From: an uncultured Candidatus Saccharibacteria bacterium
GTDB taxonomy: Bacteria; Patescibacteriota; Minisyncoccia; Phycocordibacterales; DATDWN01
Direction: 5' to 3'
DNA: 64,000 nucleotides
Assembly (NCBI GenBank): GCA_964576615.1
Contig: CAZNUU010000004.1
Span: 4,663 to 68,662, forward strand
Numbering within the stretch: position 1 is the first letter of the stretch; each line of letters starts with the position of its first letter. The notes below the pieces were generated by a model that saw nothing but the letters and a program-made list of their open reading frames with translations, searched no databases and was not told the origin of the DNA. A program made the translations under genes and the position numbers. Below, piece by piece: positions 4,175 through 55,060 of this stretch.

Positions 4175-4289
4175 TTCAGAGAGCAAAAACAAATTTTCTG
4201 GAGCACGGATATTTTCTTACTGGAAAATTCCTCGTGCTCGCGCCGTCGCGCTCCCAAGTCTCCAGAAAACTTATTTTTGCTCTCTGAAT
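4174..4289 (+). repeat. Copy 1 of the conserved-core element. A ~56-nt core is flanked by a 30-bp inverted repeat with 2 mismatches, and the element fills the entire polA-holA intergenic space.
   Basis: The left inverted repeat attcagagagcaaaaacaaattttctggag lies at 4174-4203. The core cacggatattttcttactggaaaattcctcgtgctcgcgccgtcgcgctcccaagt follows. The right inverted repeat ctccagaaaacttatttttgctctctgaat lies at 4260-4289. The next ATG is at 4290. Confidence 0.7.
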
Positions 4290-8816: not shown

Positions 8817-8916
8817 AACAAATTACATTATTTTGGAGACTTGCGAGCACGACGGCGCGAGCACGAGGAATTTTCTAGCAAGAAAATATCCGTGCTCCAA
8901 AATAATGTAATTTGTT
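8817..8916 (-). repeat. Copy 2 of the conserved-core element, in reverse orientation. It is flanked by a perfect 22-bp inverted repeat.
   Basis: aacaaattacattattttggag lies at 8817-8838 and ctccaaaataatgtaatttgtt at 8895-8916. Between them is the reverse complement of cacggatattttcttgctagaaaattcctcgtgctcgcgccgtcgtgctcgcaagt. Confidence 0.7.
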
Positions 8917-10475: not shown

Positions 10476-10982
10476 ATGCACAGGTTGTTATTGAAGTTCG
10501 CGATCTCAGTTGTTCTTGTCACTTTGTCAGGGTGGATCCTGTCGCTCTATTTCAGACCTGGGGTCCAGCCAAAGATGGAGGTTTTTACAAGAGGTGCTTC
10601 GGACATCTGGTTCGTGGCGCCGACCTGGGGCAATCCTCAGGTTTGCACCTGGTTTGATCGTGGTGACTTCCTGAAAATTGCCCATGGGCCGGTTGCAGTT
10701 ACCGGGCCAAGCGAAGACAATAAAATTTCGCTGCATGCCATCGATCGAAATGTGTGTCATGCCTGGACACCGGCCATTTCTCAAGAGGGCGATTTCGGTT
10801 ACGTAATCTCGGGAGTGGTCGTGACTACAGATTCAATCTCAGTCACTACTAGCAGAAGTTTCGCCCTTGTGTGGCTGTCTGCGTTCGTCTTTGTTGTCGC
10901 TCTCGGGTTCTTTTTGGCTTTTCTTGTGCAGCTGGTCGAGTATTTTCGTTATCGACCCAAATTGGCTGAGCCGGCCAACTAA
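10476..10982 (+). CDS. Membrane protein with N- and C-terminal TM segments, with elevated GC (cassette C).
   Basis: 168 aa. It has its own promoter, a strong SD and a terminator. Confidence 0.5.
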   Translation: MHRLLLKFAISVVLVTLSGWILSLYFRPGVQPKMEVFTRGASDIWFVAPTWGNPQVCTWFDRGDFLKIAHGPVAVTGPSEDNKISLHAIDRNVCHAWTPAISQEGDFGYVISGVVVTTDSISVTTSRSFALVWLSAFVFVVALGFFLAFLVQLVEYFRYRPKLAEPAN

Positions 10983-22458: not shown

Positions 22459-22462
22459 CTAG

Positions 22463-22544
22463 TGCCCAGGAGAGGACTCGAACCTCCACACCTTACGGCA
22501 CACCCACCTCAAGGGTGCTTGTCTACCAATTTCAACACCTGGGC
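22463..22544 (-). tRNA. tRNA-Leu, anticodon GAG.
   Basis: The acceptor stem is GCCCAGG/CCTGGGC. The anticodon stem is CACCC/GGGTG with loop TTGAGGT. There is a long variable arm. Confidence 0.75.
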
Positions 22545-23494: not shown

Positions 23495-23525
23495 GGAGCC
23501 GCACCCTCTGGTGCGGCTCCGTTTT
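23495..23525. terminator. Bidirectional GC-rich hairpin terminator. Its stem sequence is shared with the hairpin at 31965-31996.
   Basis: ggagccgcacc-ctctg-gtgcggctcc. It is flanked by T-rich runs on both strands. Confidence 0.6.
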
Positions 23526-23540: not shown

Positions 23541-23888
23541 CTAGGCGCTCGGCTCCGGCTGGTCGGATGACCAGTTCACGTCGGTGCCGTCGGGCTGCCG
23601 GAATGCCGTCACACCTCGGATCGACCTGCACTTGGCCTCGAAATCGAAGCCAAGCTTGTCCTTGGCATAGGCTCGCATTTCTGGCCCCACACCCCCCTCG
23701 ACTTTCAGGCCGTGAGCCGCCTGAAAATCGGCGTTCCGTTTCGAGCCGGTTTCTCCGAACTCACCATCGACAAGGATTCCTTCGCCGAAGCCTCGCTCGA
23801 TCAAAAACTCAAGCCAGGGGTCGACGTGCGGCCCCTTCGAACCCACTTCCATGTATGGCGGTGGGGTAAAGCCATTAATGACAGCCAT
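23541..23888 (-). CDS. GC-rich small protein with a peptidoglycan-binding (PG_binding_1-like) domain (cassette D).
   Basis: A 115-aa protein from the ATG at complement 23886-23888, with AGGAGGT 4 nt upstream. The C-terminal half, ADFQAAHGLKVEGGVGPEMRAYA, resembles a PG-binding domain. The promoter TTGACT-N16-TAATAT lies at 23903-23933 on the minus strand. Confidence 0.55.
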   Translation of the reverse strand: MAVINGFTPPPYMEVGSKGPHVDPWLEFLIERGFGEGILVDGEFGETGSKRNADFQAAHGLKVEGGVGPEMRAYAKDKLGFDFEAKCRSIRGVTAFRQPDGTDVNWSSDQPEPSA

Positions 23889-24481: not shown

Positions 24482-24672
24482 CATAAATTCTCTTTCTCAT
24501 CATATTTCTCAGAGAGCACGGATATTTTCTTGCTGAAAATCTTCTTACAGAAGCTGTACACCTTTCGCTACTACGTGCTCAAGGTCTTGCGAAGCTTCCC
24601 TTCTCACCTCGTGATTGCGAAAGTGCGCTCCCAAGGCTCTCTTCGAAACATGATTCAACAAGATTTTATGCT
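24478..24672 (+). repeat. Copy 3 of the conserved-core element. It is an expanded variant with a ~100-nt internal insertion, flanked by an imperfect ~37-bp inverted repeat.
   Basis: The start of the core gagcacggatattttcttgctgaaaat lies at 24514. The end of the core gtgcgctcccaagg lies at about 24624-24637. The flanks agcataaattctctttctcatcatatttctcagagag and ctctcttcgaaacatgattcaacaagattttatgct are complementary at about 27 of 37 positions. Confidence 0.55.
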
Positions 24673-27001: not shown

Positions 27002-27319
27002 ATGAAGAGAGAAGATTTTTTGGCCGCACTGGCCGATATCATCCAAGACCTTCAAGGTCTGGATTTCGGTCAGAGTCACGAAGATCTGTTTGGCTACGTA
27101 ACTCGGATTCTCCGATCCCGTAGCCTGCTCGCCTGGGAAGATTCCGATGCGGCCCAAGCAGGTCATAACGAGCTTGTGAGGGCTGTCGTCTCGATGTATC
27201 ATCTGCCGTCGGACACTCATCCGGTTGTAACGGCACTGAAGGTTCGGCGACTCGAAGAGAAAGCGTGGAACTATTACCACGACCAGTTCACTTATCATGA
27301 GGTGGTACAGCACGGTTGA
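27002..27319 (+). CDS. GC-rich small cytoplasmic protein of unknown function (cassette E).
   Basis: 105 aa. It has its own promoter, SD and terminator. Confidence 0.5.
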   Translation: MKREDFLAALADIIQDLQGLDFGQSHEDLFGYVTRILRSRSLLAWEDSDAAQAGHNELVRAVVSMYHLPSDTHPVVTALKVRRLEEKAWNYYHDQFTYHEVVQHG

Positions 27320-28865: not shown

Positions 28866-28895
28866 GAAAAAAGACACTTATGTAAAGTGTCTTTT
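28866..28895 (+). terminator. Hairpin followed by a T-run, after rplK.
   Basis: aagacactt-atgtaa-agtgtctt, followed by ttttct. Confidence 0.55.
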
Positions 28896-28954
28896 TTCTT
28901 GTTTTCGTGATAGTACAAGGTCAGACGTTAACAGTTTTTTGAAAGGAAGAAACG

Positions 28955-29584
28955 ATGTCAGCCAAGAACATTCTGTCCAATGGGATTTGTTTGTCGGACC
29001 GATACATTCCGAACTACGACAAACTCCAAGAAGTACTGAGGGTGATGCGTTCTCTGGGACACACAATTTCGATGACCCAGGGCGTTTACGACCTCATCCA
29101 CCCCGGGCACACCCGGTATCTCGAGAAGGCGAAATCCTTCGGGGATATCTTGGTCGTGGCTGTGGATACGGATGAGTACACCCGACTGCGCAAGCAGAGG
29201 GAAAATGAGCGTCGGCCAGTTGTGCCGTTCGAAGAGAGGCTGGAACTTCTAGCCAACCTGCGCACAGTCGACATACTGACTGTGCGGGACGTAACGGAAC
29301 ACGAGAAGGATCCGACACACGTAATAAAGATCGTACAACCGGATGTTCTCGTCATGTCGCGATCAACGAAGGATGTGGGGAAAGATTGGTACGACGAGCT
29401 TCGCAAACTCTGCGGACGTCTCGAGGTACTCGAGCCGCAGTCAACGGGCTCAACAACCAAACAACTTCGTGATCTCATGATGGACGGGGCTTCTGGACTT
29501 GTCGATCACCTCCGTGAGACGATCGACAATTACTTCAGGGCGGCCGGCCGAGAGGTGACGTTTGGTAAAAGGAGGGATGGATGA
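28955..29584 (+). CDS. Cytidylyltransferase-like (HxGH) nucleotidyltransferase. It is GC-rich.
   Basis: GVYDLIHPGHTRYL ... ILVVAVDTDEYTRLRK ... RPVVPFEERLELLANLRTVD matches the TagD / RfaE-domain-II style nucleotidyltransferase fold. It is the first gene of a GC-rich island. Confidence 0.55.
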   Translation: MSAKNILSNGICLSDRYIPNYDKLQEVLRVMRSLGHTISMTQGVYDLIHPGHTRYLEKAKSFGDILVVAVDTDEYTRLRKQRENERRPVVPFEERLELLANLRTVDILTVRDVTEHEKDPTHVIKIVQPDVLVMSRSTKDVGKDWYDELRKLCGRLEVLEPQSTGSTTKQLRDLMMDGASGLVDHLRETIDNYFRAAGREVTFGKRRDG

Positions 29585-30441
29585 GGGCATTACTCGCCTA
29601 CGTTCCTGTCTTGAACCAACGTCACGTTGATTGGTTCAAGAGACATGAGGAGAGTCCGCTCTACCTCATACCGCAAGAGATGGCGGTGGGTTTCTTACCG
29701 CGACTCTCTCGAAATATTGCGGCTGTTTCTCCCGAGACGACCGCAACATCGATCAGATTCAACGGGTTGATACGAGAGGTGGCAATATTCAATCCCGAAA
29801 ACTGGGATCCGCGTTTGGCAAAAGACAGTGGGTGGAAAGATTGGGTTTTGCCAGACGAGGATATCTCACACGAAGTAGCTGAGAGGTACCTCAAACCGAT
29901 CGGAGCTTCGTGCCTCTTCGAAGAAATCTGGGCACGTTGGGATATGACCGCTGTACAAAAAATGCAGCCGGTCATTCCAGATGTGATAGTCAGCGAGTCC
30001 GAATTTGACCAAGTTCGGATGAGGTTAGCTGAGTGCCGAAAGACAGACAGCCCGGATTGGTGGCGGCAGATTGGTGCGGTATTGTTTGATGCGGGAGGTG
30101 AACCGATTTCATCTGCCTGCAACTTACACATGCCGAACGAATACGAGACGTATATCTTCGGAGATCCACGTCTCAATGTTGATGCCGGTCAGATCGGCAA
30201 GTACACCTCGCTTCACGCCGAGAAGGCTGTCATTGTTTTGGCGGCCAGGCTGGGTCGTCCGACGAACGGCGGATCGATGTATGTCACAGTTTTTCCTTGC
30301 GAGGACTGTGCCAGAGAGATCGCGTTCGCCGGGATTTCCAAAGTGTTCTTTCGTGAAGGGTACTCTGCTCTCAATGCTCGAGAAGTCTTTCGATCATGGG
30401 GAGTGGAAGTGGTCCAAGTCAAAGGCCCCGAGTCCGCGTAA
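29581..30441 (+). CDS. Two-domain protein. The N-terminal domain (~180 aa) is unknown. The C-terminal domain is a CMP/dCMP deaminase zinc-binding domain. It is GC-rich.
   Basis: The C-terminal SLHAEKAVIVLAARLG ... VFPCEDCAREIAFAGI gives the HAE...PCxxC deaminase signature. It overlaps the previous gene in an ATGA arrangement. Confidence 0.55.
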   Translation: MRALLAYVPVLNQRHVDWFKRHEESPLYLIPQEMAVGFLPRLSRNIAAVSPETTATSIRFNGLIREVAIFNPENWDPRLAKDSGWKDWVLPDEDISHEVAERYLKPIGASCLFEEIWARWDMTAVQKMQPVIPDVIVSESEFDQVRMRLAECRKTDSPDWWRQIGAVLFDAGGEPISSACNLHMPNEYETYIFGDPRLNVDAGQIGKYTSLHAEKAVIVLAARLGRPTNGGSMYVTVFPCEDCAREIAFAGISKVFFREGYSALNAREVFRSWGVEVVQVKGPESA

Positions 30442-30457
30442 GCGGCCGGGGCCTTGT

Positions 30458-30913
30458 CTATTTCTTCCAGCCGAGAGTCACCAGAAGACGGTTTTCGGCA
30501 GTCATGTCTTCTGTTTTTTTCTCGCCAACAAGAAAATGAAAGTGCAAGTGGTCTAGAGTGGCGCCTGTATACTCCATGTCCCCTGACCTTGCAAACATAG
30601 AGTACCCAGTTACTCCGAGATGGTCCTCGAGCCAAGCGAGAAGTTCAAAAAGTTCCACTATCTCTCTCGTGTCTAGCTCGCTAGCTCTCTTCATGTGCCT
30701 CTTTGGCACGAGCAAGTAATGGTGAACACTCCCCAGGTAGGGGAAGTTGTTGGGACAGACGTACCACCACTCCGTTTCATGGATAGTGGTCGGGAGTGTC
30801 TGCTCTTCTTCCGATCCACCTCGACAGAAGTAGCAGATACCAGCGTCAATCAATTTCTGCATTCTTCTTCTTTGTTCTGGATCACGCGAGTTACTCATAT
30901 TCACTTGAGACAT
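30458..30913 (-). CDS. HIT (histidine triad) family protein. It is GC-rich.
   Basis: The histidine triad LDHLHFHFLVG is present. A CYFC zinc-binding-like motif lies near the N-terminus. Confidence 0.65.
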   Translation of the reverse strand: MSQVNMSNSRDPEQRRRMQKLIDAGICYFCRGGSEEEQTLPTTIHETEWWYVCPNNFPYLGSVHHYLLVPKRHMKRASELDTREIVELFELLAWLEDHLGVTGYSMFARSGDMEYTGATLDHLHFHFLVGEKKTEDMTAENRLLVTLGWKK

Positions 30914-30998
30914 GCGTTATACCTCTTTCGGATTTCTAACATTTTAAATATAAAAAGCAAGTCGCCCCAGAATTTTGGGGCGACTCAGTGCAGAAGGA

Positions 30999-31908
30999 CT
31001 AGACCGTGACCGGGATGTCGTTCATCACTTCTCCCGGGTGATACTCACGCAGCTCGAAGTGATTGGGTCGAAAATCGAACAGGTCACTGACCCTCTCTCC
31101 TTCTTCGGTGAGATACATCGTCGGAAACTGTCGTGTCTCTCGCTCCACAATTTTCTTTGCAGCTTCCATCTGGTCTTCGTAGATGTGGCTGTTGTGGGTT
31201 GAGTGAACAAACAGGTGCGGCTCGTAACCAAGCACATGTCCGAGCATCATGGTGAGCGCTGCGTACTGGATGGTGTTCGACGGTACGCCGATGGGGAAAT
31301 CGGCAGACCTTTGATCCATACGCAAGCTGAGTCGCTTGTTCATCACGGTGATTTCAATGTCACCGTGACATGGTGCGACGACAACTTTCCTCTTACGGCC
31401 TAAGTGTTGGATCGCGTAGTGTGGAATCCAGGAGGTGATCTTGTGAGTGATCACATCGGGGTAGTCACGAATCTGCTCGATCACTTCTCGGAACTGATTA
31501 AAGGTCCCGCCGTCGGGTGTCGTGTACTGGAACGCGCCGCCATACGAACCCGGACCCATATCGTACGGCTCAAGGTCGAAGTCGGCACATTTCTCTGGTG
31601 TGGCCCATTTCTCCATCCACCAGTTGACTCCCCACTTCTCAGCGAGTTCACGTGCGTCGCGGACACCGTGAATGAAACCGAGAAGCTCGCCGATCGGTTT
31701 TCGCCAGAAGCCCACCTTTCGTTCGGTGAGTACTGGGAAGCCGTTCGAGAGGATGTAACTCATCGGTGCGAGGTCGAGGACAACGTAACGCCCGGTCCTC
31801 TGGAATGGATTCTTGGCGTACTCGCCGCTTGCCAGAATCTGTGCCAGGAAATTCTTGTACTGCGTATCCGGCGTACGAAGGCTATACGGTCGATAATTCG
31901 GATGCATG
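30999..31908 (-). CDS. thyA: Thymidylate synthase (ThyA family). It is GC-rich.
   Basis: The catalytic VVAPCHGDIEI (PCH motif) is present. QRSADFPIGVPSNTIQYAALT retains the Asn equivalent of E. coli N177, indicating dUMP specificity. The start was chosen at the Met preceded by AAAGGA (MHPNYR). Confidence 0.7.
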
Positions 31909-31964
31909 CTAGTCCTTTCAAAAAAGCAGATCTTTTGTGATACTAGCATCTAACTTTTTTAAGT

Positions 31965-31996
31965 CAAAGGAAGAGCCGCACCCACTGGTGCGGCCC
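31965..31996. terminator. GC-rich hairpin between folA and thyA. It shares its stem sequence with the hairpin at 23495-23525.
   Basis: agagccgcacc-cactg-gtgcggccc. Confidence 0.45.
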
Positions 31997-31999
31997 AAG

Positions 32000-32491
32000 T
32001 TATCGTCGGTACTCGACGACATTGAACGAGAATTCGTTCTCTTTGTCAGCATCATGTCGAAAGAGGGAGGAGCCGACGTATTCCCTGGGAATTTCTGGGA
32101 AAAATGTGTCACCTCCCTCGATCTCAGTTTCAACGTGGGTTACGACAAGTCGTTCCACGGCAGAAAGGAAGAGTGAGTAAATCTCTCTTCCACCCATCAC
32201 GAAGACTTCGCGTGTTCTTGAGAGTCTTTGAATCTCAGCGAGATGCAGACCCAACATGGTGTGGCAGCCTGCGGCCCTAAATGTCGGGTCGTTGGTCAGG
32301 ACGATGTTCTCTCTACCAGGTAGGGGTTTGTACGCCGCTGGGATTGACTTGTAGGTTTTTCTGCCCATGACAACCACATGACCCATGGTCGTGTTCTTGA
32401 AGTGATCCATGTCTGCCTTGAGGTGCCAAGGGATGTTGTCTTTCTTGCCAATCACACGATTGGCATCCATTGCCACGATAATACTGAGCAT
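32000..32491 (-). CDS. folA: Dihydrofolate reductase. It is GC-rich.
   Basis: The N-terminus MLSIIVAMDANRVIGKKDNIPWHLKADMDHFKNTTMGHVVVMGRKTY matches DHFR. AAGGAG lies 7 nt upstream of the chosen ATG (complement 32489-32491). Confidence 0.8.
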   Translation of the reverse strand: MLSIIVAMDANRVIGKKDNIPWHLKADMDHFKNTTMGHVVVMGRKTYKSIPAAYKPLPGRENIVLTNDPTFRAAGCHTMLGLHLAEIQRLSRTREVFVMGGREIYSLFLSAVERLVVTHVETEIEGGDTFFPEIPREYVGSSLFRHDADKENEFSFNVVEYRR

Positions 32492-34533: not shown

Positions 34534-37500
34534 ATGGAAAAAGAAGAAAAAAAATTAGGCAAATCAGATGTGGCTTTGAAAGAAGAAGCTATTTTAGAGT
34601 CCTGGCAAAAAAATAGAATATTTGAAAAGACTTTGGAAAAAAATTCCCCGAAGGGTGAGTTTGTTTTTTATGATGGGCCACCTTTTGCCACGGGCTTACC
34701 TCACTACGGTAGTTTACTTGGCTCCATCGCTAAAGATCTTTTTCCGCGTTACAAAACCATGCAAGGCTATTATGTACGCCGTCGCTGGGGCTGGGATTGT
34801 CACGGGCTTCCAATTGAAAATTTGGTGGAAAAGAAATTAGGCCTTAAACACAAAAAAGACATTGAGGTTCTGGGTATAGAGAAATTTAACGAGGAATGTC
34901 GGAGCCAGGTTCTAACTTATGTACACGATTGGAAAAAGTACATTGATCGGGTAGCTCGCTGGGTTGATTTTGATGGCTCCTACAAAACCATGGATGCCAG
35001 TTTTACTGAAAGTGTCTGGTGGGCACTTTCCGAAATGAATGAAAAAGGACTTCTCTACGAAGGTCGTAAGGTCTTACTTTATTGTCCGCACTGCGAAACT
35101 CCTCTGGCCAAGGCCGAGATTGCTATGGATAACTCTTACAAGGACATAACAGAGGAGGCTGTGACAGTAGAATTCAAGCTAAAAGATGACCCTAAGACTT
35201 CTATTCTCGCCTGGACAACAACACCGTGGACTCTCCCAGGTAACGTGGCGTTGGCAGTTCATCCTGATATTGATTACGTAGTAATAGAGAAGAAAGATAT
35301 GGGTGTGGGGGACTTGGTTCGATTTATTCTAGCTAAAAAAAAGCTCGAGGATATTTTTGGTAAAGACGAATATAGGGTTGTTGAAGAAAAAAAAGGAAGG
35401 GATTTAGTTGGCCTTGAATATGAACCTCTCTATGAAATTGAAGCAGTTAAAAAAACAGGTAAAAAAGCTTGGTATGTGACTGGAGCGGATTTTGTTAACA
35501 CGGAAGAGGGAACAGGTGTAGTTCATACAGCTGTAATTTATGGGGAGGACGATTTTAATCTAGGCCAGAAAATTGATTTACCGATGGTGCCCCTACTTTT
35601 GCCAAATGGAAATTTTAACCTGGAGGCACCAGAGTTTATTAGAGGTGTCTATCTAAAAAAAGCAGAGGGTTTGATAAAAGAAGATCTCGAGAAGCGTGGG
35701 CTTTTATTCGATAAGAAAATGAATACCCACTCCTATCCGCATTGTTACAGGTGTGGCACGCCACTCATATACAATGCACTTTCTAGCTGGTTCATTGATG
35801 TTCAGAAGATAAAGGACAAAATAATTTCGACAAACGAAAACATTAATTGGATGCCAGATCACCTGAAACACGGACGTTTTCTAGATATCATGACTAACGC
35901 GCCAGATTGGGCAATAAGCCGAAATCGTTTTTGGGCTTCACCTTTGCCGATTTGGAAAGATAGCCAAGGGAATATAACAGTTGTAAGTGGTTTGGAAGAT
36001 TTGAAAAAGCATCTTAGGAAAACTGGCAATAAATTCTTTTTAATAAGACACGGAGGGTCACTCAGCAATGAAAAAAATGTAAGCAGTTTAGTGCCGGGTG
36101 AAGAAAATGATTGCCTCACGAAAAAAGGCGAAGATCAGGTTAGAAAATCAGCCAAAGAGTTTAAAGACAAGGTTGATTTAATTATTACCTCTAATTTTAG
36201 AAGGACGCAAAAAACAGCCGAAATTTTCGCTGAAGAAAAAGGATTAAGTAAGGAGGATATCGTGGTTGATGATAGCCTGCATGAATTTATTGATGAGGGT
36301 GACCGGGCTGAAAATTATGCAGATGTCAGAAAGAGGATGGTTCATGTTCTCTCGCGTTTAGACAAAGAATATTCGGATAAAAATATTCTGGTCGTTTCTC
36401 ACGAGTATCCATTGCGAGTCCTGCTTTCCTCCCACGAATCTCTCGACGATTTTGAAGAGAGTGAAAACTTTAATAATAAATTTACTTACCTGGATAATGC
36501 CAAAATTACCCCAATAAATTTTATTTCGCTACCCCGAAATATCTTTGCTCAAGTTGATTTTCACCGACCTTATATTGATGAGGTTCAGTTATACAACGAT
36601 ATAGGGGATTCTATATATAGAATTCCGGAGGTAATTGATTGTTGGGTAGAGTCAGGCTCCATGCCTTTTGCAGAATATAATTATCCTTTTGCGCATAAGA
36701 AAGAATTTGAAAAGAGAAGCCCTGCAGATTTTATAGCAGAGTACATACCCCAAACACGTACCTGGTTTTACTATATGCATGTCGTTTCCAACGCTTTGTT
36801 TGGGCATGAAGCATTTAAAAACGTTGTCACGACGGGGAATGTTCTTGCGATAGATGGTAGCAAAATGAGTAAATCAAAAAATAATTATACCGATCCGCTT
36901 ATATTAATGGATAAATTTGGCGCAGATTCGTTACGCTACTATTTGACGACCAGTGTAGTGATGCAAGCAGAAGATTTGGCTTTTTCGGATAAGGATGTGC
37001 AAGAAATTCACCAGAGGCTTCTAAATATTTTGAGAAATGTTGCGGTATTTTACGAGACTTATAAAAGTGATTCAGAGCCAAAATTAAATCACGAGAATGT
37101 TTTAGACAAATGGATATCTATGCGCCTCAAACAATTGAGGGATGAAACCACGGTAAATTTAGATAGATTTGATTCAATCCGAGCTGGCAGACCGCTTAAG
37201 CAGCTTGTGGATGATTTGTCTACTTGGTATTTGAGAAGATCTAGAGAGCGTTTAAAGATGGGCGGAGAAGAGGGGGAGAAAGCACTCCAGCATTTAGCCT
37301 TTATTCTCGGGGAGCTATCAAAGCTTATTGCACCGTTTGTGCCGTATGTTGCTGAGGAAATTTACCAGAAAGTTAAAGGCAAAAGAGGCCTACAAAGTGT
37401 GCATTTAGAAAGTTGGCCAGAAATGAGGGATGTAAATGTTGAACCAGATTTTCTAGCTATCATGTCTAATACCAGAGAAATAGTAACTCAAGCTCTCGAG

Positions 37501-37914
37501 TTAAGGCAGGAGGCTAATATAAAGGTGCGTCAACCCCTGGCGTCACTCACTATTCCTGAGAGTTTGCCAAAAGAGTTTTTGGAAATTTTACGAGATGAAG
37601 TTAATGTCAAAGAGGTAAAAGTTGGTGGTGATTTAAATCTTGATACTAATTTAACCCCCGAACTTCTCGCGGAGGGGCTGGTACGGGATGTTATAAGAGG
37701 GATTCAAGATGTGAGAAAAACAGAAGGTTTAAATCCAAATCAAAAGATAAAGATAGTTGCTCATGCCGATAAGGAGTTAGAAAAAATGATTAATTCAAAT
37801 TTAAGCCAAATTAAACAGCCGACTCAGGTATCTGGCGTTTCTTTCTCGAGAGAAGAACAAAAACATAAAATTGCACTTGAAAAAAACAAACTCTCTGTTT
37901 CAATAGAGAAGTAA
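34534..37914 (+). CDS. ileS: Isoleucine--tRNA ligase with an inserted histidine-phosphatase (PGAM-like) domain.
   Basis: The HIGH-class motif PHYGS and the KMSKS motif are present. WAISRNRFWASPLPIW is present. The insert between that and DCWVESGSMPFA carries FLIRHGGSLSNEKN and VVSHEYPLRVLL, which are the RHG and SH motifs of histidine phosphatases. Confidence 0.85.
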   Translation: MEKEEKKLGKSDVALKEEAILESWQKNRIFEKTLEKNSPKGEFVFYDGPPFATGLPHYGSLLGSIAKDLFPRYKTMQGYYVRRRWGWDCHGLPIENLVEKKLGLKHKKDIEVLGIEKFNEECRSQVLTYVHDWKKYIDRVARWVDFDGSYKTMDASFTESVWWALSEMNEKGLLYEGRKVLLYCPHCETPLAKAEIAMDNSYKDITEEAVTVEFKLKDDPKTSILAWTTTPWTLPGNVALAVHPDIDYVVIEKKDMGVGDLVRFILAKKKLEDIFGKDEYRVVEEKKGRDLVGLEYEPLYEIEAVKKTGKKAWYVTGADFVNTEEGTGVVHTAVIYGEDDFNLGQKIDLPMVPLLLPNGNFNLEAPEFIRGVYLKKAEGLIKEDLEKRGLLFDKKMNTHSYPHCYRCGTPLIYNALSSWFIDVQKIKDKIISTNENINWMPDHLKHGRFLDIMTNAPDWAISRNRFWASPLPIWKDSQGNITVVSGLEDLKKHLRKTGNKFFLIRHGGSLSNEKNVSSLVPGEENDCLTKKGEDQVRKSAKEFKDKVDLIITSNFRRTQKTAEIFAEEKGLSKEDIVVDDSLHEFIDEGDRAENYADVRKRMVHVLSRLDKEYSDKNILVVSHEYPLRVLLSSHESLDDFEESENFNNKFTYLDNAKITPINFISLPRNIFAQVDFHRPYIDEVQLYNDIGDSIYRIPEVIDCWVESGSMPFAEYNYPFAHKKEFEKRSPADFIAEYIPQTRTWFYYMHVVSNALFGHEAFKNVVTTGNVLAIDGSKMSKSKNNYTDPLILMDKFGADSLRYYLTTSVVMQAEDLAFSDKDVQEIHQRLLNILRNVAVFYETYKSDSEPKLNHENVLDKWISMRLKQLRDETTVNLDRFDSIRAGRPLKQLVDDLSTWYLRRSRERLKMGGEEGEKALQHLAFILGELSKLIAPFVPYVAEEIYQKVKGKRGLQSVHLESWPEMRDVNVEPDFLAIMSNTREIVTQALELRQEANIKVRQPLASLTIPESLPKEFLEILRDEVNVKEVKVGGDLNLDTNLTPELLAEGLVRDVIRGIQDVRKTEGLNPNQKIKIVAHADKELEKMINSNLSQIKQPTQVSGVSFSREEQKHKIALEKNKLSVSIEK

Positions 37915-46979: not shown

Positions 46980-49900
46980 ATGATCGGCGATGCAGTAAAA
47001 AGAATAGTGAGAAAAGAATTTCCTACTGGAAAAACTGTTTTTTCTTCACTCTTAATTTCTCTGTTAGCCCTCTCGCCCCTGCCACTTTTTGCCTCTACTT
47101 ATCAAACTTTAGCCTACCAAGACGTACACAAAGACAGATACCTATTTGCCTTTAATTTGATTTCAAGTGTTCAGAATTCTCTTGCGAATTTAAGTGATGG
47201 CCAGATAGGAAGTAAGTTTTCAGATGAGGAAAATCAGTTAATTTCAGCGAGCCAGCAGAACGCAGATAAGTTAGGAGAATTAATTAATGAAAAAATAGAT
47301 TACTTGGGTTATTCAATAAACCAGGGTTCAGCAGATTTGGTGTACCAAGGAGAATTATTTTTTGAATATATTTTTGGTTTATCTTTGAATAATAATCCAA
47401 GCGGTAATTATAATTTCAAATCACCGATAAGTGGAGGAGTGTCTTTGAGCAATCTTTTTGAAGGCAAAGTGATTTCAAAGTTTAGAAATTTATTTGGTAA
47501 TGGGATCAATTTTCCAAAAGTTGCTGAAGCAAAAAAAATAGTAGAAAAGAAATCGGAACAGATTTCAGAAAAAACGAAAGCTGCCGAAGTTGCAGTTTCA
47601 AATAAACCAGAGCCAAAAGTTTTGGCTGCAAATATTTCTGTTCCAACAAGTGCAATAAAAAAAGTTATAAATAATTATTTGGCTCCAACTCCTAAACAGG
47701 ATGCGGCACTTAGTATTTTACCTAACTACGTAACAAAAAAAGATTTAGACAGTCGCTTGAAGTTATTATCTGAAGAATTTATTAAAAAAATATCGGCAAT
47801 TAACATTAATCCCGTAAGTGGTGACGATTTGGCAAACATATACAGGCAGATCGCTCTAACCCAGAGGATAGACCAAATTTCAAATGTAACCATCAATAAT
47901 TCCTACATTAGCAGCGGTAGTGTCGGGGGTGTCTCTGTGACCAACATTGTTTCAAATACTGGCTCAACAAGTATCCCGAATCTAGTAGTAAACAACACCT
48001 CTACCTCTACATTTGCCGGGGGGGTAGCTATTACAGGCGGATGTATAAGTGTAAATGGTACATGTGTGGGTGGCGGTGGGGGTAGTGGTACACCCGGAGG
48101 TAGTGATGGCCAGATCCAATTTAACAGTGGAGGGACATCATTCGGAGGGTCGTCCAGTTTGGTCTGGGATAATACTAACTTGAGGCTGGGTGTTGGTACA
48201 ACATCACCATACGCTCCACTTTCAGTTGTGGGGCAAATTGTTGCAGCCTATTTTACGGCAACAACAACATTGGTAAATACATTTCCTTATGCTTCAACCA
48301 CAGCTCTGTCGGTTTCCAGTGGACTGACATTGAATACTTCAACTAATGGTCCACTTCAAGCAGTTGGTGGAATTGTTTCAGCTACCACATCGATTGGTGT
48401 TGCGTACGGTGGTACCGGTTGGGCATCTCTTCAATCAAACGCAGTTCTTCTTGGAAATGGTTCAGGGAAAATTGCAACAACATCAGCTGGTACCGACGGG
48501 CAAGTCTTGGCATTAGTAAACGGGGTACCAACCTGGCAATCGACTACAACACTTTCTACAATTACTGGAACACTTACAGTAGGGAAGGGTGGTACTAATG
48601 CAACATCTTTCTCAGCTAACTCGATTGTGGTTTCTGATGCTGCCGGGACAACTCTAATTGCTACTGGGTCGAAACTAACCATTGGCTCACTCCTTTCTAC
48701 CACAACCGCAACATCCACATTTTCTGGAGCACTAGGAATTGGCACGACATCACCTTGGGCAGTATTTTCTGTTAACCCAACGGGAGGTACAGCAGCTGCA
48801 CAATTTGTAGTTGGATCCTCATCTGCAACAAATCTAATCGTGTTAAACTCGGGATTTGTTGGTATTTCCAGTACAACCCCGACATCTAGATTTGGAGTAA
48901 ACCCTCAAGCCGGAGATATAGTAGCTTTTGCAGTAGGTTCTTCAACTAAATCACTTCTCTCCATCTCGACTGAAGGTTTTGGCACCACAACCCTTGCTGG
49001 TCTTAACGTAAATGCTACAGCCACTTCTACATCAAATGTTGGCTGGAATATAAGTAATGGTTGTTATGCTATTTCTGGAACCTGTCTTTCTCTTTCTAAT
49101 TTGGCTGGAACACTTGCTGTCTCCAAGGGCGGAACAAATGCTACTTCTTTTGCAGCTAACTCCATCATTGTCTCTGATGCTGCTGGCACAACTCTCATTG
49201 CAACAACATCAAACAACTTCACACTCGGATCGTTTATTGCCACCTCCACCACACTTAACTCCTACTCACTTAATAACTGGACAGGTTTTGGCACAAGTAC
49301 GCCGGTATACGAAGTTACAATCTCATCTTCTACAGCGCCCCAGTTAGCTTTATCTGCAGGCTCGGGTATAGCGCAGTGGGTATTTAGAAACGGTGGGGGT
49401 GATCTTTATCTCGCGACTACAACTGTCGCGGGAACTGCTACTACCTCAATCACAGCTCTAACCATATCTGGTAGTGGCTTCGGTACCACAACAATCCGCG
49501 GCCTAACTATTGCTAACGGCCAAGCAACTTCTACCTCCAACGTCGGTTGGTCAATCACAAATGGTTGTTACGCTATAGGTACGACCTGTCTATCACTTTC
49601 ATCACTTACTGGAACACTCGCGGTTGCAAGTGGTGGTACTAACTCGACATCTTTTGCGGCTAACTCGATTATCACATCTGATGCCGCCGGAACTACACTC
49701 ATTGCAACAACATCAAACAACTTCACACTCGGATCATTTATTGCCACCTCCACCACACTTAACTCCTACTCACTTAATAACTGGATTGGTTTTGGTACCA
49801 CAACATCGAAGTACCCCTTAACAATTTCATCTTCGACGGCATCTCAACTTGCTCTCTCAGCTAGCTCTGGTTTTGCTCAGGTGGTGTTTAGAAATGATGG

Positions 49901-50801
49901 CACTAACTTTTACATTGCCACAACCACTACTGCTGGTACAGCTACCACTTCAACTCCGGCGATGCAGATAGCAATATCTACTGGTAATGTTGGTTTTGGT
50001 ACAACAACTTCTCTTGGGCCGCTCACCATGAACTCTGGTGCGTTTGTGACAACAGGAGGTACATGGACAAACGCGTCAGATCGAAACTTGAAGGAAAATT
50101 TTGTGGAGCTAGATATTAACGATATCTTAAACAAGATTATGCAGTTGCCGATAACACAGTGGAATTATAAATCTGAAAATATTAACATTCCTCACATCGG
50201 TCCAGTTGCTCAAGATTTCCATGCAATATTTGGTCTTGGTAATTCTGATACATCAATCTCGACCATTGACCCTGCCGGTGTAGCACTTGTGGGTATAAAA
50301 GCTTTATATAAAAAAATCGAAGACATTGGCAAATATTTTGCAGATAATGTTCTTAAAATAAACAAAGTCTCTACGGAAAACCTTTGTGTAAGTGATGATG
50401 AAGGTGAGACGTGTATCACTAGGGCAGAACTTCTAGCACTTCTTTCAAAATCAAAAGGGCAAAGCAGTAATACTCCTCCTCCAACGGCTTCGACAACTCT
50501 GTCTGTCCCGCAAGACACTTCCGCTCCAGTTATTACTATTTTGGGGGATAACCCAGCACAGATAGTTGTTGGCTCAACTTATTCCGACATGGGTGCCACA
50601 GTTTCTGATACCAACGCAGATGGAAGTGTAAATAATAATCTGGGTCTGCACTACACTGTAAATGGTCTAAGTACAGATTCTGTTTCGATTGATACGGCTA
50701 CTTCATCAAGTCACACCGTCGTATATTCGGCAGTAGATTCGTCAGGAAACTGGGGCTATGCAACTCGAACTGTAGAGGTAAAAGAAGCTGTTGCGCCGTA
50801 A
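46980..50801 (+). CDS. Giant secreted protein (1273 aa) resembling a tail fibre. It has a signal peptide, Thr/Ser/Gly-rich beta repeats, a C-terminal intramolecular-chaperone (peptidase S74-like) module, and a DUF5011-like Ig domain.
   Basis: The signal peptide is FSSLLISLLALSPLPLFAS. A ~170-aa unit is repeated (GTLAVSKGGTNATSFAANSI...). The chaperone-like block is LPITQWNYKSENINIPHIGPVAQDFHAIFG...VALVGIKALYKKIEDI. The C-terminal PVITILGDNPAQIVVGSTYSDMGATVSDTNADGS is DUF5011-like. Confidence 0.6.
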   Translation: MIGDAVKRIVRKEFPTGKTVFSSLLISLLALSPLPLFASTYQTLAYQDVHKDRYLFAFNLISSVQNSLANLSDGQIGSKFSDEENQLISASQQNADKLGELINEKIDYLGYSINQGSADLVYQGELFFEYIFGLSLNNNPSGNYNFKSPISGGVSLSNLFEGKVISKFRNLFGNGINFPKVAEAKKIVEKKSEQISEKTKAAEVAVSNKPEPKVLAANISVPTSAIKKVINNYLAPTPKQDAALSILPNYVTKKDLDSRLKLLSEEFIKKISAININPVSGDDLANIYRQIALTQRIDQISNVTINNSYISSGSVGGVSVTNIVSNTGSTSIPNLVVNNTSTSTFAGGVAITGGCISVNGTCVGGGGGSGTPGGSDGQIQFNSGGTSFGGSSSLVWDNTNLRLGVGTTSPYAPLSVVGQIVAAYFTATTTLVNTFPYASTTALSVSSGLTLNTSTNGPLQAVGGIVSATTSIGVAYGGTGWASLQSNAVLLGNGSGKIATTSAGTDGQVLALVNGVPTWQSTTTLSTITGTLTVGKGGTNATSFSANSIVVSDAAGTTLIATGSKLTIGSLLSTTTATSTFSGALGIGTTSPWAVFSVNPTGGTAAAQFVVGSSSATNLIVLNSGFVGISSTTPTSRFGVNPQAGDIVAFAVGSSTKSLLSISTEGFGTTTLAGLNVNATATSTSNVGWNISNGCYAISGTCLSLSNLAGTLAVSKGGTNATSFAANSIIVSDAAGTTLIATTSNNFTLGSFIATSTTLNSYSLNNWTGFGTSTPVYEVTISSSTAPQLALSAGSGIAQWVFRNGGGDLYLATTTVAGTATTSITALTISGSGFGTTTIRGLTIANGQATSTSNVGWSITNGCYAIGTTCLSLSSLTGTLAVASGGTNSTSFAANSIITSDAAGTTLIATTSNNFTLGSFIATSTTLNSYSLNNWIGFGTTTSKYPLTISSSTASQLALSASSGFAQVVFRNDGTNFYIATTTTAGTATTSTPAMQIAISTGNVGFGTTTSLGPLTMNSGAFVTTGGTWTNASDRNLKENFVELDINDILNKIMQLPITQWNYKSENINIPHIGPVAQDFHAIFGLGNSDTSISTIDPAGVALVGIKALYKKIEDIGKYFADNVLKINKVSTENLCVSDDEGETCITRAELLALLSKSKGQSSNTPPPTASTTLSVPQDTSAPVITILGDNPAQIVVGSTYSDMGATVSDTNADGSVNNNLGLHYTVNGLSTDSVSIDTATSSSHTVVYSAVDSSGNWGYATRTVEVKEAVAP
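48570..49800 (+). repeat. Intragenic tandem repeats with a period of about 510-540 nt. The last two units are almost identical over ~130 nt.
   Basis: The segment at 49141-49270 is near-identical to the segment at 49651-49780 (...tcattgcaacaacatcaaacaacttcacactcggatc...). Mirror ORFs appear on the minus strand at 49064-49252 and 49568-49756. Confidence 0.75.
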
Positions 50802-53199: not shown

Positions 53200-53235
53200 T
53201 TGACATTTTATAATATATATTTACAATGTGGTTTA
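53200..53235 (+). promoter_or_regulatory. Promoter of cassette H: TTGACA, a 16-nt spacer, then TACAAT.
   Basis: TTGACA lies at 53200-53205. The -10 element is TACAAT. GGAGGT lies before the ATG at 53248. Confidence 0.5.
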
Positions 53236-53247
53236 GGAGGTCGAAGT

Positions 53248-53436
53248 ATGAGATGGTTCGTAAAACGCATTCGTGGTGCCCAGGAGCACGTTGTGGGATT
53301 CGCAAACGACCACAATCTCAAACCGGGCGAGCTACTCGTCATCTCGTCAGATCCAGGAGAGTACAGCCGCTTTGGCGGTGGTCGGGAAGCTTCGGTTCTG
53401 CTAATGTACTACGCAGAAAAGGAGCTCGAGTCATGA
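53248..53436 (+). CDS. GC-rich 62-aa protein, first gene of cassette H.
   Basis: The protein reads MRWFVKRIRGAQEHVVGFANDHNLKPGELLVISSDPGEYSRF... Its stop overlaps the next ATG in an ATGA arrangement. Confidence 0.45.
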   Translation: MRWFVKRIRGAQEHVVGFANDHNLKPGELLVISSDPGEYSRFGGGREASVLLMYYAEKELES

Positions 53437-53591
53437 CTCGAAGAATTGTCGGAGGATTTCTCGTCCTCGGTGCGATCATTATGGGAGTCATTCAGTATCG
53501 AACAGACAATCGTGATCTCATCGTGATCGGTGGTCTCACACTCGGTGTCGGGCTCATTCTGCTCTTCCCCAAAAGACAAGGCGTCTTGTAG
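53433..53591 (+). CDS. GC-rich 52-aa two-TM membrane peptide, second gene of cassette H.
   Basis: The protein reads MTRRIVGGFLVLGAIIMGVIQYRTDNRDLIVIGGLTLGVGLILLFPKRQGVL. Confidence 0.45.
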   Translation: MTRRIVGGFLVLGAIIMGVIQYRTDNRDLIVIGGLTLGVGLILLFPKRQGVL

Positions 53592-53856: not shown

Positions 53857-54972
53857 TTAGCCCTCGGCTTCCATCCCACCAGTACCTGGAACCATTGATC
53901 CACCGTTTTTCTTTAATCCAGCACGGATTTCTTTTAATATTGAGTCAGCAACTTTTTTATTTTCTTTATCTTTCAAAAATTGTCGTGTAGCATCGTAACC
54001 GCGGCCAAGTTTAACTTCACCAAACGAGTAGCTTGTGCCAGTTTTAGAAATTATGCCCATTTTCTCACCTAGGGCAATAAGTTCACCCTCACGCGAAATT
54101 CCTTCGTTATACATGAGGTCAAACTCTGTTTGTTTAAATGGTGCTGCCACTTTGTTTTTAACAACTTTAACTCTTATGCGTCCACCCATGACTTCTTCAC
54201 CTTTTTTTATTTGGGCAATTCGGCGGATATCTAATCGAACAGATGTGTAAAATTTGAGAGCTTTTCCGCCTGGAGTTGTCTCCGGATTACCAAACATTAC
54301 TCCTATCTGCATCCTGATCTGATTGAGGAAAATAACTATTGTTTTAGACTTGGCTACGATGGCGGTTAATTTGCGTAGAGCTTGAGACATTAGTCTGGCC
54401 TGCTTACCAACATGATGAGCTCCCATATCTCCCTCGATTTCATCTTTTGGTGTCAGAGCCGCAACAGAGTCAACAACAATTACATCGATTTTCCCGGAGC
54501 GAACAAGTGAATCCACGATTTCCAGGGCTTGTTCGCCATTATCCGGTTGAGAAATAAGTAAGTGATCTATATTTACACCGATTCTCTTGGCATATTCTGG
54601 ATCCATAGCATGTTCTGCGTCTATGAAGGCACAAATACCATCTTTTTTTTGAGCCTCGGCTATTACGTGAAGTGAAAGTGTTGTTTTACCAGATGATTCC
54701 GGCCCAAAAATCTCAATTATCCTCCCACGTGGCAGACCACCAACTCCAAGTGCCGCATCCAGACCAATTGACCCAGTTGATACTGCGTTTATATCGACAT
54801 GTGGCTTTTCGCCGAGCATCATGATGGAGTCATCGCCAAATTTTGTTTTTATTTCGCGAAGGGTATTATCAATGCTCACTTTTTCACCTCGACTAGGCAT
54901 TTCCCCGCCTGCGCGGGCAGTTTTTTCTGATTTTTGTTTTGATTTCATTTTTTTAGGATTTCGTTGAGCCAT
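53857..54972 (-). CDS. recA: Recombinase A.
   Basis: The Walker A motif [13 protein letters not shown] is present. [36 protein letters not shown] is present. The start was set at MAQRN (complement 54970-54972). The longer ORF would run through the repeat element. Confidence 0.9.
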
Positions 54973-55060
54973 AATTTTTCTGGCGCCTTGGGAGCGCGAC
55001 GGCGCGAGCACGAGGAATTTTCTAGCAAGAAAATATCCGTGCGCAAGAAAAATTATGGGG
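54969..55060 (-). repeat. Copy 4 of the conserved-core element, in reverse orientation. It is flanked by an 18-bp inverted repeat with 1 mismatch. The recA start codon lies inside the element end.
   Basis: ccataatttttctggcgc lies at 54969-54986 and gcgcaagaaaaattatgg at 55043-55060. The core is the reverse complement of acggatattttcttgctagaaaattcctcgtgctcgcgccgtcgcgctcccaag. Confidence 0.7.

Follow-up and report, generated by a model that had tools for sequence, protein, structure and literature searches.

The block of five genes between rplK and argS, at positions 28955-32491 of the window (the whole 64,000-nucleotide stretch that was analysed), is a lineage-typical dTMP synthesis module of the Paceibacteria/Parcubacteria (ultra-small CPR bacteria) and not an insertion. 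It carries the genes for a nucleotidyltransferase (NT), a 286-aa deaminase fusion protein, a HIT protein, a ThyA and a DHFR. The whole is best explained by such a module, with accessory roles for NT and HIT and with lateral exchange, a reading to which we assign a probability of roughly 0.6.

Layout and base composition of the block

All five genes had been called correctly in the original prediction, and each product has a Pfam match. These genes and the features associated with them are as follows.

28866-28898, no strand assigned: bidirectional AT-rich hairpin 3' of rplK, terminator-like, with 14 pairs on both strands (sequence read directly)
28955-29584, + strand: NT, 209 aa, HxGH cytidylyltransferase-like (PF01467, 51.9 bits; GVYDLIHPGH)
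29581-30441, + strand: deaminase fusion protein, 286 aa (PF00383, 43.9 bits, aa 144-257; HAE...PCEDC)
29581-29994, + strand: its N-terminal domain, aa 1-138, a putative divergent or degenerate cytidylyltransferase-like Rossmann fold
30010-30441, + strand: its C-terminal dCMP-deaminase-like domain (PF00383; HAE and PCEDC zinc ligands)
30417-30459, no strand assigned: GC-rich hairpin common to the convergent deaminase and HIT genes (RNAfold -28.4 kcal/mol, z = -5.4)
30458-30913, - strand: HIT-superfamily protein, 151 aa (PF01230, 26.5 bits; CYFC zinc motif; HLHFHF triad)
30958-30987, - strand: hairpin 3' of thyA, terminator-like, with 12 pairs and a T-run behind them
30999-31907, - strand: ThyA, 302 aa, divergent subfamily (PF00303, 178.9 bits; the mechanical ORF extends to 31949)
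31973-31996, - strand: terminator-like hairpin 3' of folA (near-identical copy at 23498-23517)
32000-32491, - strand: DHFR (FolA), 163 aa (PF00186, 167.9 bits; a record of the identical protein exists)
23496-23521, - strand: folA-type hairpin again (second copy), located 3' of a GC-rich gene at 23541-23888 (-) that encodes 115 aa

The predicted 3.5-kb block of elevated GC was also confirmed. Its GC content is 0.517 as against 0.394 in the remaining window, and no other 3.5-kb stretch reaches as high a value (z = 6.7). The five genes have GC3 values of 0.55-0.66, as compared to 0.25-0.40 in nusG, rplK, argS and ileS. The rise in GC maps onto the coding sequences, GC being 0.31-0.42 in the intergenic spacers, and the left edge of the GC-rich block is marked by the AT-rich hairpin at 28866-28898. 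Further GC-rich orphan genes are present in the same genome.

Conservation of the cluster in Paceibacteria and Parcubacteria

The comparative set comprised 80 species-level Paceibacteria/Parcubacteria genomes, the ORFs of the relatives being called mechanically. The core, with NT and the deaminase in one orientation followed by HIT and ThyA in the other, was observed to be essentially invariant across the 80 genomes. NT stands immediately upstream of the deaminase in all loci with room (76/76), HIT is next in 70 of 72 loci, and ThyA then follows in 71 of 72. This shows that the four-gene invariant core consists of NT, the NT-like-domain::deaminase fusion, HIT and ThyA. Within 9 kb on either side of the 80 loci, rplK was found in 61, DHFR in 55, argS in 42, glyA in 26, dut in 18 and folD in 13. 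The cluster usually occupies the rplK-argS interval and has DHFR, dut, glyA or folD close by, and in relatives L002-L007 the gene order is that of the window.

The block had been taken for an island inserted after rplK, and the presence of the cluster at the same locus in relatives had been named as the observation that would speak against this. Relatives that are just 33-63% identical do carry the same cluster at the same locus, and the claim has to be given up. As predicted, rplA does not follow rplK, and no L1 gene was seen among the window ORFs scanned. The suggestion that rplA had been displaced does not hold, since absence of L1 is a known trait of OD1-L1 Parcubacteria (PMC5220378) and the relatives likewise lack rplA after rplK.

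Predicted functions of the five proteins

The ATGA overlap between NT and the deaminase is real and spans 4 nt (GGATGGATGAGGGC); the mechanically called ORFs of the two genes overlap in 67 of 79 loci. The N-terminus of the fusion protein, described originally as ~180 unassigned aa, is ~140 aa long. The HxGH position of this domain reads NQRH in the window protein, whereas most orthologues have HxGY there; we tentatively regard it as a degenerate NT-like domain. In the C-terminal domain HAE and PCEDC are invariant throughout the family. The domain has a CDA fold with HxE and PCxxC zinc ligands, and its nearest structural neighbours are dCMP deaminases; the top 15 Foldseek matches all belong to this group (T4, human, S-TIM5, PBCV-1 and S. 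mutans). It scores 84 bits against phrog_174, and 40 bits against the ComEB profile TIGR02571, whose cutoff is 219. The classical dCMP deaminase/ComEB clade has a zinc-binding bihelical insert with two Cys and one His, and 'NA' after HxE (Iyer et al. 2011, PMC3239186). Neither is found here: the insert at aa 185-210 contains no Cys and has low pLDDT, and the motif reads HAEKAV.

ThyA scores above the curated cutoff of TIGR03284 (131.3 vs 108.35 bits). On alignment to 6k7q, the window protein keeps C146, H147, E58, Y94, R166, S167, D169, N177 and Y209, and the catalytic Cys, E58, Y94, R166-S167, D169, N177 (uracil specificity) and Y209 are each present in 75-76 of 76 orthologues; the alignment upholds the predicted retention of the PCH cysteine and of the Asn equivalent to E. 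coli N177. The pair Arg126'/Arg127', through which the partner subunit binds the phosphate of dUMP, is absent from the window protein, R126 and R127 being replaced by Ile and Thr; among the orthologues R126 is kept in 58/76, while R127 is Thr in 68/76. A 7-aa insertion precedes the PCH motif. By homology, ThyA is predicted with high confidence to be a folate-dependent thymidylate synthase. That it would make dTMP and DHF from dUMP and CH2-THF is indirectly supported by the DHFR gene adjacent in 55 of 80 loci and by glyA and folD in the vicinity. DHFR contains a full-length DHFR_1 domain (profile positions 1-159 of 159), matches phrog_316, and scores 117.7 bits against the type-3 profile NF008037, under its cutoff of 168. 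CPR folA genes have been shown to complement an E. coli delta-folA strain (PMC11974145).

The dCMP-to-dUMP-to-dTMP module proposed originally for the deaminase, ThyA and DHFR is right by homology. With high confidence, the deaminase domain is predicted to convert dCMP, or possibly dCTP, to dUMP, ThyA would methylate dUMP to dTMP, and DHFR would recycle dihydrofolate; dut, glyA and folD, which neighbour the cluster in relatives, would complete the cycle. The T4-type/Gram-positive route (cd/td/frd; ComEB/ThyA/DfrA) uses the same three enzyme families with the same inferred chemistry and DHF recycling, thyA and folA are adjacent here as in many bacteria, and the deaminase domain is structurally nearest to the dCMP deaminases of T4, human, cyanophage and S. 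mutans. The module differs from this route in a deaminase that has an extra 140-aa N-domain, putatively NT-like, and neither the Cys/His zinc insert nor the 'NA' motif (PMC3239186), in a ThyA without Arg127 and with the 7-aa insertion, and in having an intact NT and HIT as obligatory partners.

NT scores well above the gathering threshold of PF01467 (21 bits) and carries HPGH and STGSTT, which places it among the HxGH nucleotidyltransferases. HxGH is present in 75 of 78 aligned orthologues, along with a (T/S)STT-type second motif, with some variants. The protein falls below the equivalog cutoffs of both HldC/RfaE-II (TIGR02199, 89.3 vs 181.5 bits) and TagD (TIGR01518, 44.8 vs 165.4 bits), and scores drop from 136 bits for the NT subfamily to 93 bits for generic RfaE-II proteins. 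By sequence it comes closest in the PDB to HldC, TagD and ECT, the nearest solved structure being HldC 5x9q (1e-13), followed by TagD. NT is thus predicted to be an intact HxGH nucleotidyltransferase of the RfaE-II/HldC/TagD type, in a subfamily specific to Patescibacteria. With HldC/RfaE-II and TagD (GCT) it shares the HxGH motif, an (R)TxG(I)STT-type motif and a catalytic core of similar length; unlike HldC and TagD, it lies far under their equivalog cutoffs and has N- and C-terminal extensions of its own. In contrast to HldC, TagD and ECT, the putative second NT-like domain lies here on a separate polypeptide, fused to the deaminase, and the context is deoxypyrimidine metabolism and not envelope sugar/polyol activation.

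HIT lies above the gathering threshold of PF01230 (21.5 bits) and has the HLHFHFL motif; with the HIT superfamily (Hint, Fhit, GalT/Ap4A-phosphorylase) it shares the histidine triad, the CxxC zinc motif and a length of ~150 aa. It is far from the superfamily members in the PDB, the matches being Hint-like and very distant (E about 1e-4), and the family is specific to Patescibacteria. The triad is HxHxH in the clade of the window protein and HxHxQ or HxHxN in many distant orthologues; HxHxQ/N is typical of the GalT transferase branch. HIT is also fused to the C-terminus of DHFR in some genomes (L004, L014, L017 and L028; BLASTP 1e-22), a fusion for which we found no precedent in the literature searched.

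NT would be translationally coupled to a deaminase that bears a degenerate NT-like domain. ECT consists of tandem CT domains, and an active domain together with a degenerate one resembles this arrangement. NT and the deaminase protein probably pair in the manner of cytidylyltransferase dimers or of the ECT tandem, which would keep NT tethered to the deaminase. HIT may act beside DHFR and ThyA, given its fusion to DHFR in some genomes. The most likely joint role, proposed with lower confidence, is that NT and HIT make and then resolve a nucleotidyl phosphoanhydride, with putative substrates; this step would feed the deaminase and ThyA, for instance by taking a deoxycytidine precursor from the triphosphate level, or from an NDP-linked form, down to the monophosphate.

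Another possibility, which we consider improbable, is a carrier-linked pathway. In it, NT would couple a deoxycytidine nucleotide to a phosphate acceptor, the product being an NDP-X or dinucleoside diphosphate; this conjugate would be the substrate of the deaminase and ThyA, and HIT, as a phosphorylase or transferase, would release dTMP or dTDP. If true, the cell would do without free dUMP/dUTP and might also bypass thymidylate kinase. Such a pathway would fit the inseparability of the four core genes, the predicted catalytic integrity of NT, the putative NT-like, nucleotide-binding domain of the deaminase, the altered R127 in the phosphate-binding pair of ThyA and the conserved basic insertion beside its catalytic Cys, and, for HIT, the HxHxQ/N orthologues and the DHFR fusions. 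This proposal is, however, purely inferential, and we know of no such carrier-linked pathway; ThyA keeps R21, R166 and S167, and in most cases R126, as would be expected of an ordinary dUMP enzyme, dut is adjacent in 18/80 loci, implying ordinary use of free dUMP, and simpler roles are possible. Less probable still is anti-phage nucleotide depletion of the dCTP-deaminase type, or base hypermodification with the ThyA homologue as hydroxymethylase. ThyA homologues can indeed be pyrimidine hydroxymethylases, and anti-phage dCTP deaminase profiles score 73-74 bits over the C-terminal 60 aa of the deaminase. Anti-phage dCTP deaminases also share the two-domain layout of a nucleotide-binding N-domain and a C-terminal deoxycytidylate-type deaminase, with strong local similarity over ~60 catalytic residues. 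But the match is limited to this catalytic core, the NF041025 score of 72.8 bits (aa 202-271 only) being far below the cutoff of 400, and the PADLOC dCTPase profile covers only 62 residues, with no PADLOC match for the other four proteins. Their N-domain has a P-loop kinase-like fold whereas the one here is putatively NT-like, and the cluster is universal within its lineage at a housekeeping locus, unlike patchy defence islands. Hypermodification is opposed by the TIGR03284 score of ThyA and by the adjacent DHFR, glyA and folD, which argue for a true dihydrofolate-producing thymidylate synthase.

Origin of the block and its probable exchange between lineages

GC3 of the core rises with that of the flanks with slopes of only 0.42-0.58, as against 0.73-0.87 (r 0.93-0.95) for dut, glyA and folD. 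The core deviates by up to +0.33 where the genome is low in GC and by down to -0.24 where it is high, and the five genes deviate in concert (r = 0.77-0.92). The GC anomaly belongs to the five-gene module and not to this genome alone. Similarity of the core also conflicts with that of the flanks, as judged by pairwise identities and not by trees. Flanks are 88% identical between L043 and L049 and 93% identical between L012 and L033, but the cores are only 41/40/46% and 41/43/56% identical; conversely, L042 and L063 have cores that are 64/49/71% identical and flanks that are 49% identical. Two deeply divergent types of NT occur among genomes with near-identical flanks. Some of this incongruence may be saturation or noise, as argS identities also correlate poorly with those of nusG and rplK (Spearman 0.2).

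The decoupling of five-gene GC3 from the host and these conflicts are signs of lateral replacement at a locus that is itself conserved; the odd base composition suggests that the cluster has been swapped between lineages at a fixed genomic address. The module would have been exchanged among Paceibacteria lineages of differing GC, replacing the resident copy at rplK-argS. Of the horizontal origin proposed originally, a lateral component is thus plausible, while insertion as an island is contradicted by synteny.

Strictly vertical inheritance, with an intermediate GC3 kept by selection on codon usage, mRNA structure or expression level, is less probable than lateral exchange. It would account for the high conservation of locus and gene order, and GC3 is raised in all close relatives at 50-65% protein identity, which implies a long-lived state; nor did we find a donor with a near-identical cluster, the best relative having 68-73% protein identity. 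Against it, the sign of the deviation flips with host GC, the highly expressed flanks (rplK, nusG) and the pathway neighbours (dut, glyA, folD) track the host, and the core conflicts strongly with its flanks, down to the two NT types beside near-identical ones. A recent island from a phage or other foreign source, entering between rplK and argS and displacing rplA, is very improbable. Such an origin would fit the position of the block at the GC peak of the window, the sharing of the folA hairpin with one of the other GC-rich orphan genes, and the matches of the deaminase, ThyA and DHFR to PHROG families. However, the relatives deviate in composition too, and in both directions, and the cluster is not absent from their locus but lies between rplK and argS in most, including dozens of divergent Paceibacteria, with rplA lacking lineage-wide. 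We found no integrase, flanking tRNA or target-site duplication at the block; the longest repeat at its boundaries is 8 nt, and the nearest tRNA is 6 kb off. The module had been called typical of large phages, but no relative of the deaminase fusion protein was found in IMG/VR, and identity to phage ThyA does not exceed 34%, as against 59-69% for the closest syntenic Patescibacteria orthologues.

The folA hairpin was not found at the relatives' loci. As originally noted, it is shared with another GC-rich cassette: GCCGCACCC[A/T]CTGGTGCGGC occurs at 31975-31994 and again at 23498-23517, where 0 matches are expected by chance. The 115-aa gene next to the second copy shows weak similarity to PG_binding_1.

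Genes and proteins of the cluster

All five genes of the original prediction were found between rplK and argS, at 28955-32491, together with the ATGA overlap between the first two.

28955-29584, + strand: HxGH cytidylyltransferase-like nucleotidyltransferase (NT), 209 aa, PF01467
29581-30441, + strand: deaminase fusion protein, 286 aa, with a C-terminal CMP/dCMP-deaminase domain at aa 144-257
30458-30913, - strand: HIT protein, 151 aa
30999-31907, - strand: ThyA
32000-32491, - strand: DHFR

The gene descriptions were borne out, except that the start of ThyA had to be corrected to give the gene at 30999-31907. The deaminase protein does have an N-terminus without assignment, but its size is about 140 aa and not 180.

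The nearest known relatives of NT are HldC/RfaE-II, TagD and ECT, yet its scores fall far short of the equivalog cutoffs for these enzymes. Of 78 aligned orthologues, 75 have HxGH, and the second motif is of the (T/S)STT type. The HIT protein combines a CxFC zinc motif with an intact triad; in many of the distant orthologues the triad reads HxHxQ/N, which is characteristic of the GalT-type branch of transferases. HIT was observed to be fused to the C-terminus of DHFR in the relatives' loci L004/L005 (same assembly as L028), L014 and L017.

For the C-terminal domain of the fusion protein, the top 15 Foldseek matches were dCMP deaminases (among them those of T4, human, cyanophage S-TIM5, PBCV-1 and S. 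mutans). It differs from the classical dCMP deaminase clade in having neither the zinc insert nor the 'NA' motif, and is locally similar to anti-phage dCTP deaminases; because of this local likeness in sequence, dCTP may be a substrate. A defence system was rejected, since the PADLOC match was limited to a 62-residue stretch of the deaminase. The N-terminal domain gave no PDB match at the sequence level and an hhalign probability of 0.5% against the NT family; fold comparison alone was informative about its identity.

ThyA scores above the TIGR03284 cutoff and keeps the catalytic residues C146, H147, E58, Y94, R166, S167, D169, N177 and Y209 (E. coli numbering), which are retained in 75-76 of 76 orthologues. 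R127 is replaced by Thr in 68/76 family members, R126 is also lost in the window's subclade, and all members share a conserved 7-residue insertion directly before the PCH motif. DHFR is full-length, and folA genes from CPR bacteria have been found to rescue an E. coli delta-folA strain (PMC11974145).

Strong hairpins lie between the genes of the cluster. The folA terminator hairpin occurs in two copies, as had been claimed, the second at 23498-23517 with one loop mismatch and directly 3' of another small GC-rich gene; it was absent at all relatives' loci checked. No Rfam family was matched in and around the cluster, the sole sub-threshold match being the terminator hairpin, and a regulatory RNA there was therefore rejected.

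A conserved address in relatives

We scanned for relatives using one genome per GTDB species, which gave 113, and kept 80, including Zambryski-, Kaiser-, Adler-, Nealson-, Lipton-, Sung-, Vogel-, Campbell- and Nomurabacteria; ORFs at the 80 loci were labelled with phmmer seeds. The deaminase fusion, NT and HIT each form a well-populated Patescibacteria-specific family. On inspecting genomic contexts, we observed that relatives with 47-63% identity have the same genes, order and address: SIMPL-secE-nusG-rplK, NT and deaminase, then HIT, ThyA and DHFR in the reverse orientation, and (dut) argS and ileS after them. At all 76 loci with room for it, NT is the gene immediately before the deaminase gene; HIT follows the deaminase gene at 70/72 loci, and ThyA follows HIT at 71/72. 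Within 9 kb, the 80 loci contain DHFR (55), rplK (61), argS (42), glyA (26), dut (18) and folD (13). The four-gene core of NT, deaminase fusion, HIT and ThyA is also intact at other addresses, for example after ileS or beside glyA/folD.

These observations overturn the earlier reading of an island inserted after rplK, since the same cluster sits at the same address in divergent relatives; CPR homologues inherited vertically at this address, which had been named beforehand as evidence against an island, were found. Nor has rplA been displaced, as relatives also pass from rplK straight to the cluster, and the absence of L1 is a defining trait of the OD1-L1 Parcubacteria (PMC5220378). No integrase, flanking tRNA, target duplication or boundary direct repeat longer than 8 nt was detected at the cluster. 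The suggested phage-type origin fared no better: the deaminase fusion has no relative in IMG/VR, and ThyA is at most 34% identical to any of 50,697 phage records, against 59-69% for its closest syntenic orthologues. We conclude that the cluster is a real feature which had been misread as an island. Elsewhere in the window, which is part of a genome, approximate E. coli/T. maritima queries found no rplA, dut, glyA, folD, thyX, tmk or tdk.

At one relative's locus (L004 5329-7282, the same as L028), an NT5C 5'(3')-deoxyribonucleotidase and two uncharacterised genes lie between rplK and NT, one of these two having a weak ParB-CE match; NT5C is one more deoxypyrimidine-related gene at the locus. 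Further along, ileS (34534-37914; also in L002-L005) has a histidine-phosphatase domain inserted in the isoleucyl-tRNA synthetase, recognised as PF00300 in relatives and by the RHG motif 'FFLIRHGGS' in the window protein.

Proposed pathway

Homology and context uphold the reading of the deaminase, ThyA and DHFR as a dCMP to dUMP to dTMP module, in which the deaminase would yield dUMP, ThyA would yield dTMP and DHFR would recycle folate, relatives also having glyA and folD. By analogy with cytidylyltransferase dimers and the tandem domains of ECT, NT may pair with the putative NT-like domain of the deaminase protein, their translational coupling presumably securing the stoichiometry, and HIT would act alongside DHFR and ThyA. 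NT and HIT are predicted nucleotidyl-transfer enzymes. Their most economical role would be to make a nucleotidyl phosphoanhydride and afterwards resolve it, a step that could supply a substrate at the monophosphate level, e.g. from dCTP.

A bolder scheme combines a hitherto undescribed nucleotidyl-carrier route to thymidine nucleotides, run by the inseparable four-gene core, with exchange of the cassette at a fixed address among CPR lineages. NT may conjugate a deoxycytidine nucleotide into an NDP-linked form, deamination and methylation may take place while it is conjugated, and a HIT-type phosphorylase/transferase may release dTMP or dTDP. The changed phosphate site of ThyA and the transferase-like HIT motif would fit such a route, which, if true, would avoid free dUMP and dUTP and possibly bypass thymidylate kinase; we nevertheless regard the carrier route, and with it the combined scheme, as improbable.

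The dCMP-deaminase/ThyA/DHFR backbone is the known part of the cluster. What is new is that NT and HIT are obligatory partners, that a putative NT-like domain is fused to the deaminase and, in some relatives, HIT to DHFR, and that ThyA is a variant form; the four-gene core was not described in the literature searched. Few pathways in biology are as well known as thymidylate synthesis, and here a whole CPR class always links it with two uncharacterised, predicted nucleotidyl-transfer enzymes and with a deaminase that bears a second, apparently degenerate nucleotidyltransferase-like domain. Synteny this tight usually reflects a real biochemical dependency, and it makes the cluster a concrete and testable lead to a missing step of deoxypyrimidine metabolism in bacteria that do not grow in pure culture.

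Base composition and probable lateral exchange

The raised GC of the block was confirmed (0.517 vs 0.394 in the rest of the window), and it is the GC maximum among all 3.5-kb windows (z=6.7). GC3 of the five genes is 0.55-0.66, as against 0.25-0.40 in the flanking nusG, rplK, argS and ileS. Several GC-rich units occur in this genome, the module being one; the rest are small orphan genes that each carry a promoter-like site and a GC hairpin of their own.

516-1202, + strand: GC-rich ORF, no Pfam match
10476-10982, + strand: GC-rich ORF, no Pfam match
23541-23888, - strand: GC-rich ORF, weak PG_binding_1 match
27002-27319, + strand: GC-rich ORF between SIMPL and secE, no Pfam match
53226-53591, + strand: GC-rich ORF, no Pfam match

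GC3 of these five ORFs is 0.48-0.72 (window median 0.34), and all have a TTGACA...TATAAT-like site 5' and a strong GC hairpin 3'. Relatives have nothing between SIMPL and secE, where the 27002-27319 ORF stands. The five ORFs look like self-contained acquired cassettes. Since one orphan unit has the folA hairpin and relatives are without it, this suggests that part of the accessory DNA of this genome came from a common GC-richer source.

The GC anomaly is not peculiar to this genome. At 69 loci with flanking housekeeping genes, regression of the five genes' GC3 on that of the flanks gave slopes of 0.42-0.58, and dut, glyA and folD, neighbours in the same pathway, gave 0.73-0.87 (r 0.93-0.95). 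Module GC3 departs from that of the host by up to +0.33 in low-GC genomes and down to -0.24 in high-GC ones, and the five genes deviate in concert (r=0.77-0.92). Conflict between core and flanks was measured as pairwise identities. Loci L043 and L049 are 88% identical in their flanks and about 42% in the core; L012 and L033 are 93% identical in the flanks and 41/43/56% in the core; L042 and L063 are 49% identical in the flanks and 64/49/71% in the core. NT falls into two deeply divergent types (~42% vs 65-70% identity to the window) whose flanks are equally close.

Judged from these sequence comparisons, the best explanation is that Paceibacteria have repeatedly replaced the module laterally, always at a conserved address. 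Selection on composition might instead produce the GC anomaly, and we retain it since the core/flank conflict rests on identities rather than trees and since the argS identities, too, agree poorly with the nusG and rplK values. It is disfavoured because the sign of the GC3 deviation changes with host GC, and because of the behaviour of rplK/nusG and of dut/glyA/folD. Pairwise argS identities (L008-L087) gave a Spearman coefficient of 0.2 against nusG/rplK; argS may itself have been laterally exchanged, or saturation may have blurred its signal.

Likewise new is a module that stays at a fixed locus and is decoupled there in composition and phylogeny. With a conserved address, composition decoupled in both directions and flank conflict, repeated lateral replacement would find here a clean case for study, one that bears on how essential metabolic genes are replaced in reduced genomes. 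Where local GC anomalies lie beside ribosomal genes in CPR genomes, synteny should be checked before they are called islands.

Other features of the window were also recorded. The spacer between nusG and rplK recurs between rpsF and ssb (28240-28283/28369-28425 vs 51350-51393/51518-51574), with a first segment of 44 nt (100% identity) and a second of 57 nt (86%), the latter reaching the start codon; the duplicate had no Rfam match and may act as a promoter or leader common to both places. An intergenic repeat of ~80 nt at 4191-4274, 8827-8906 and 54971-55054 (partial at 24491-24539) is GC-rich, internally palindromic and MITE- or REP-like, its copies being 88-92% identical and in both orientations. 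ARAGORN matched a tRNA-Leu(gag) at 22462-22544 (- strand), which Rfam did not report at its gathering threshold. At 46980-50801 lies a 1273-aa surface-type protein with a Peptidase_S74 chaperone and Ig-like domains, whose internal repeats of 504-540 bp (48550-49822, ~76% identical) account for a local GC rise there.
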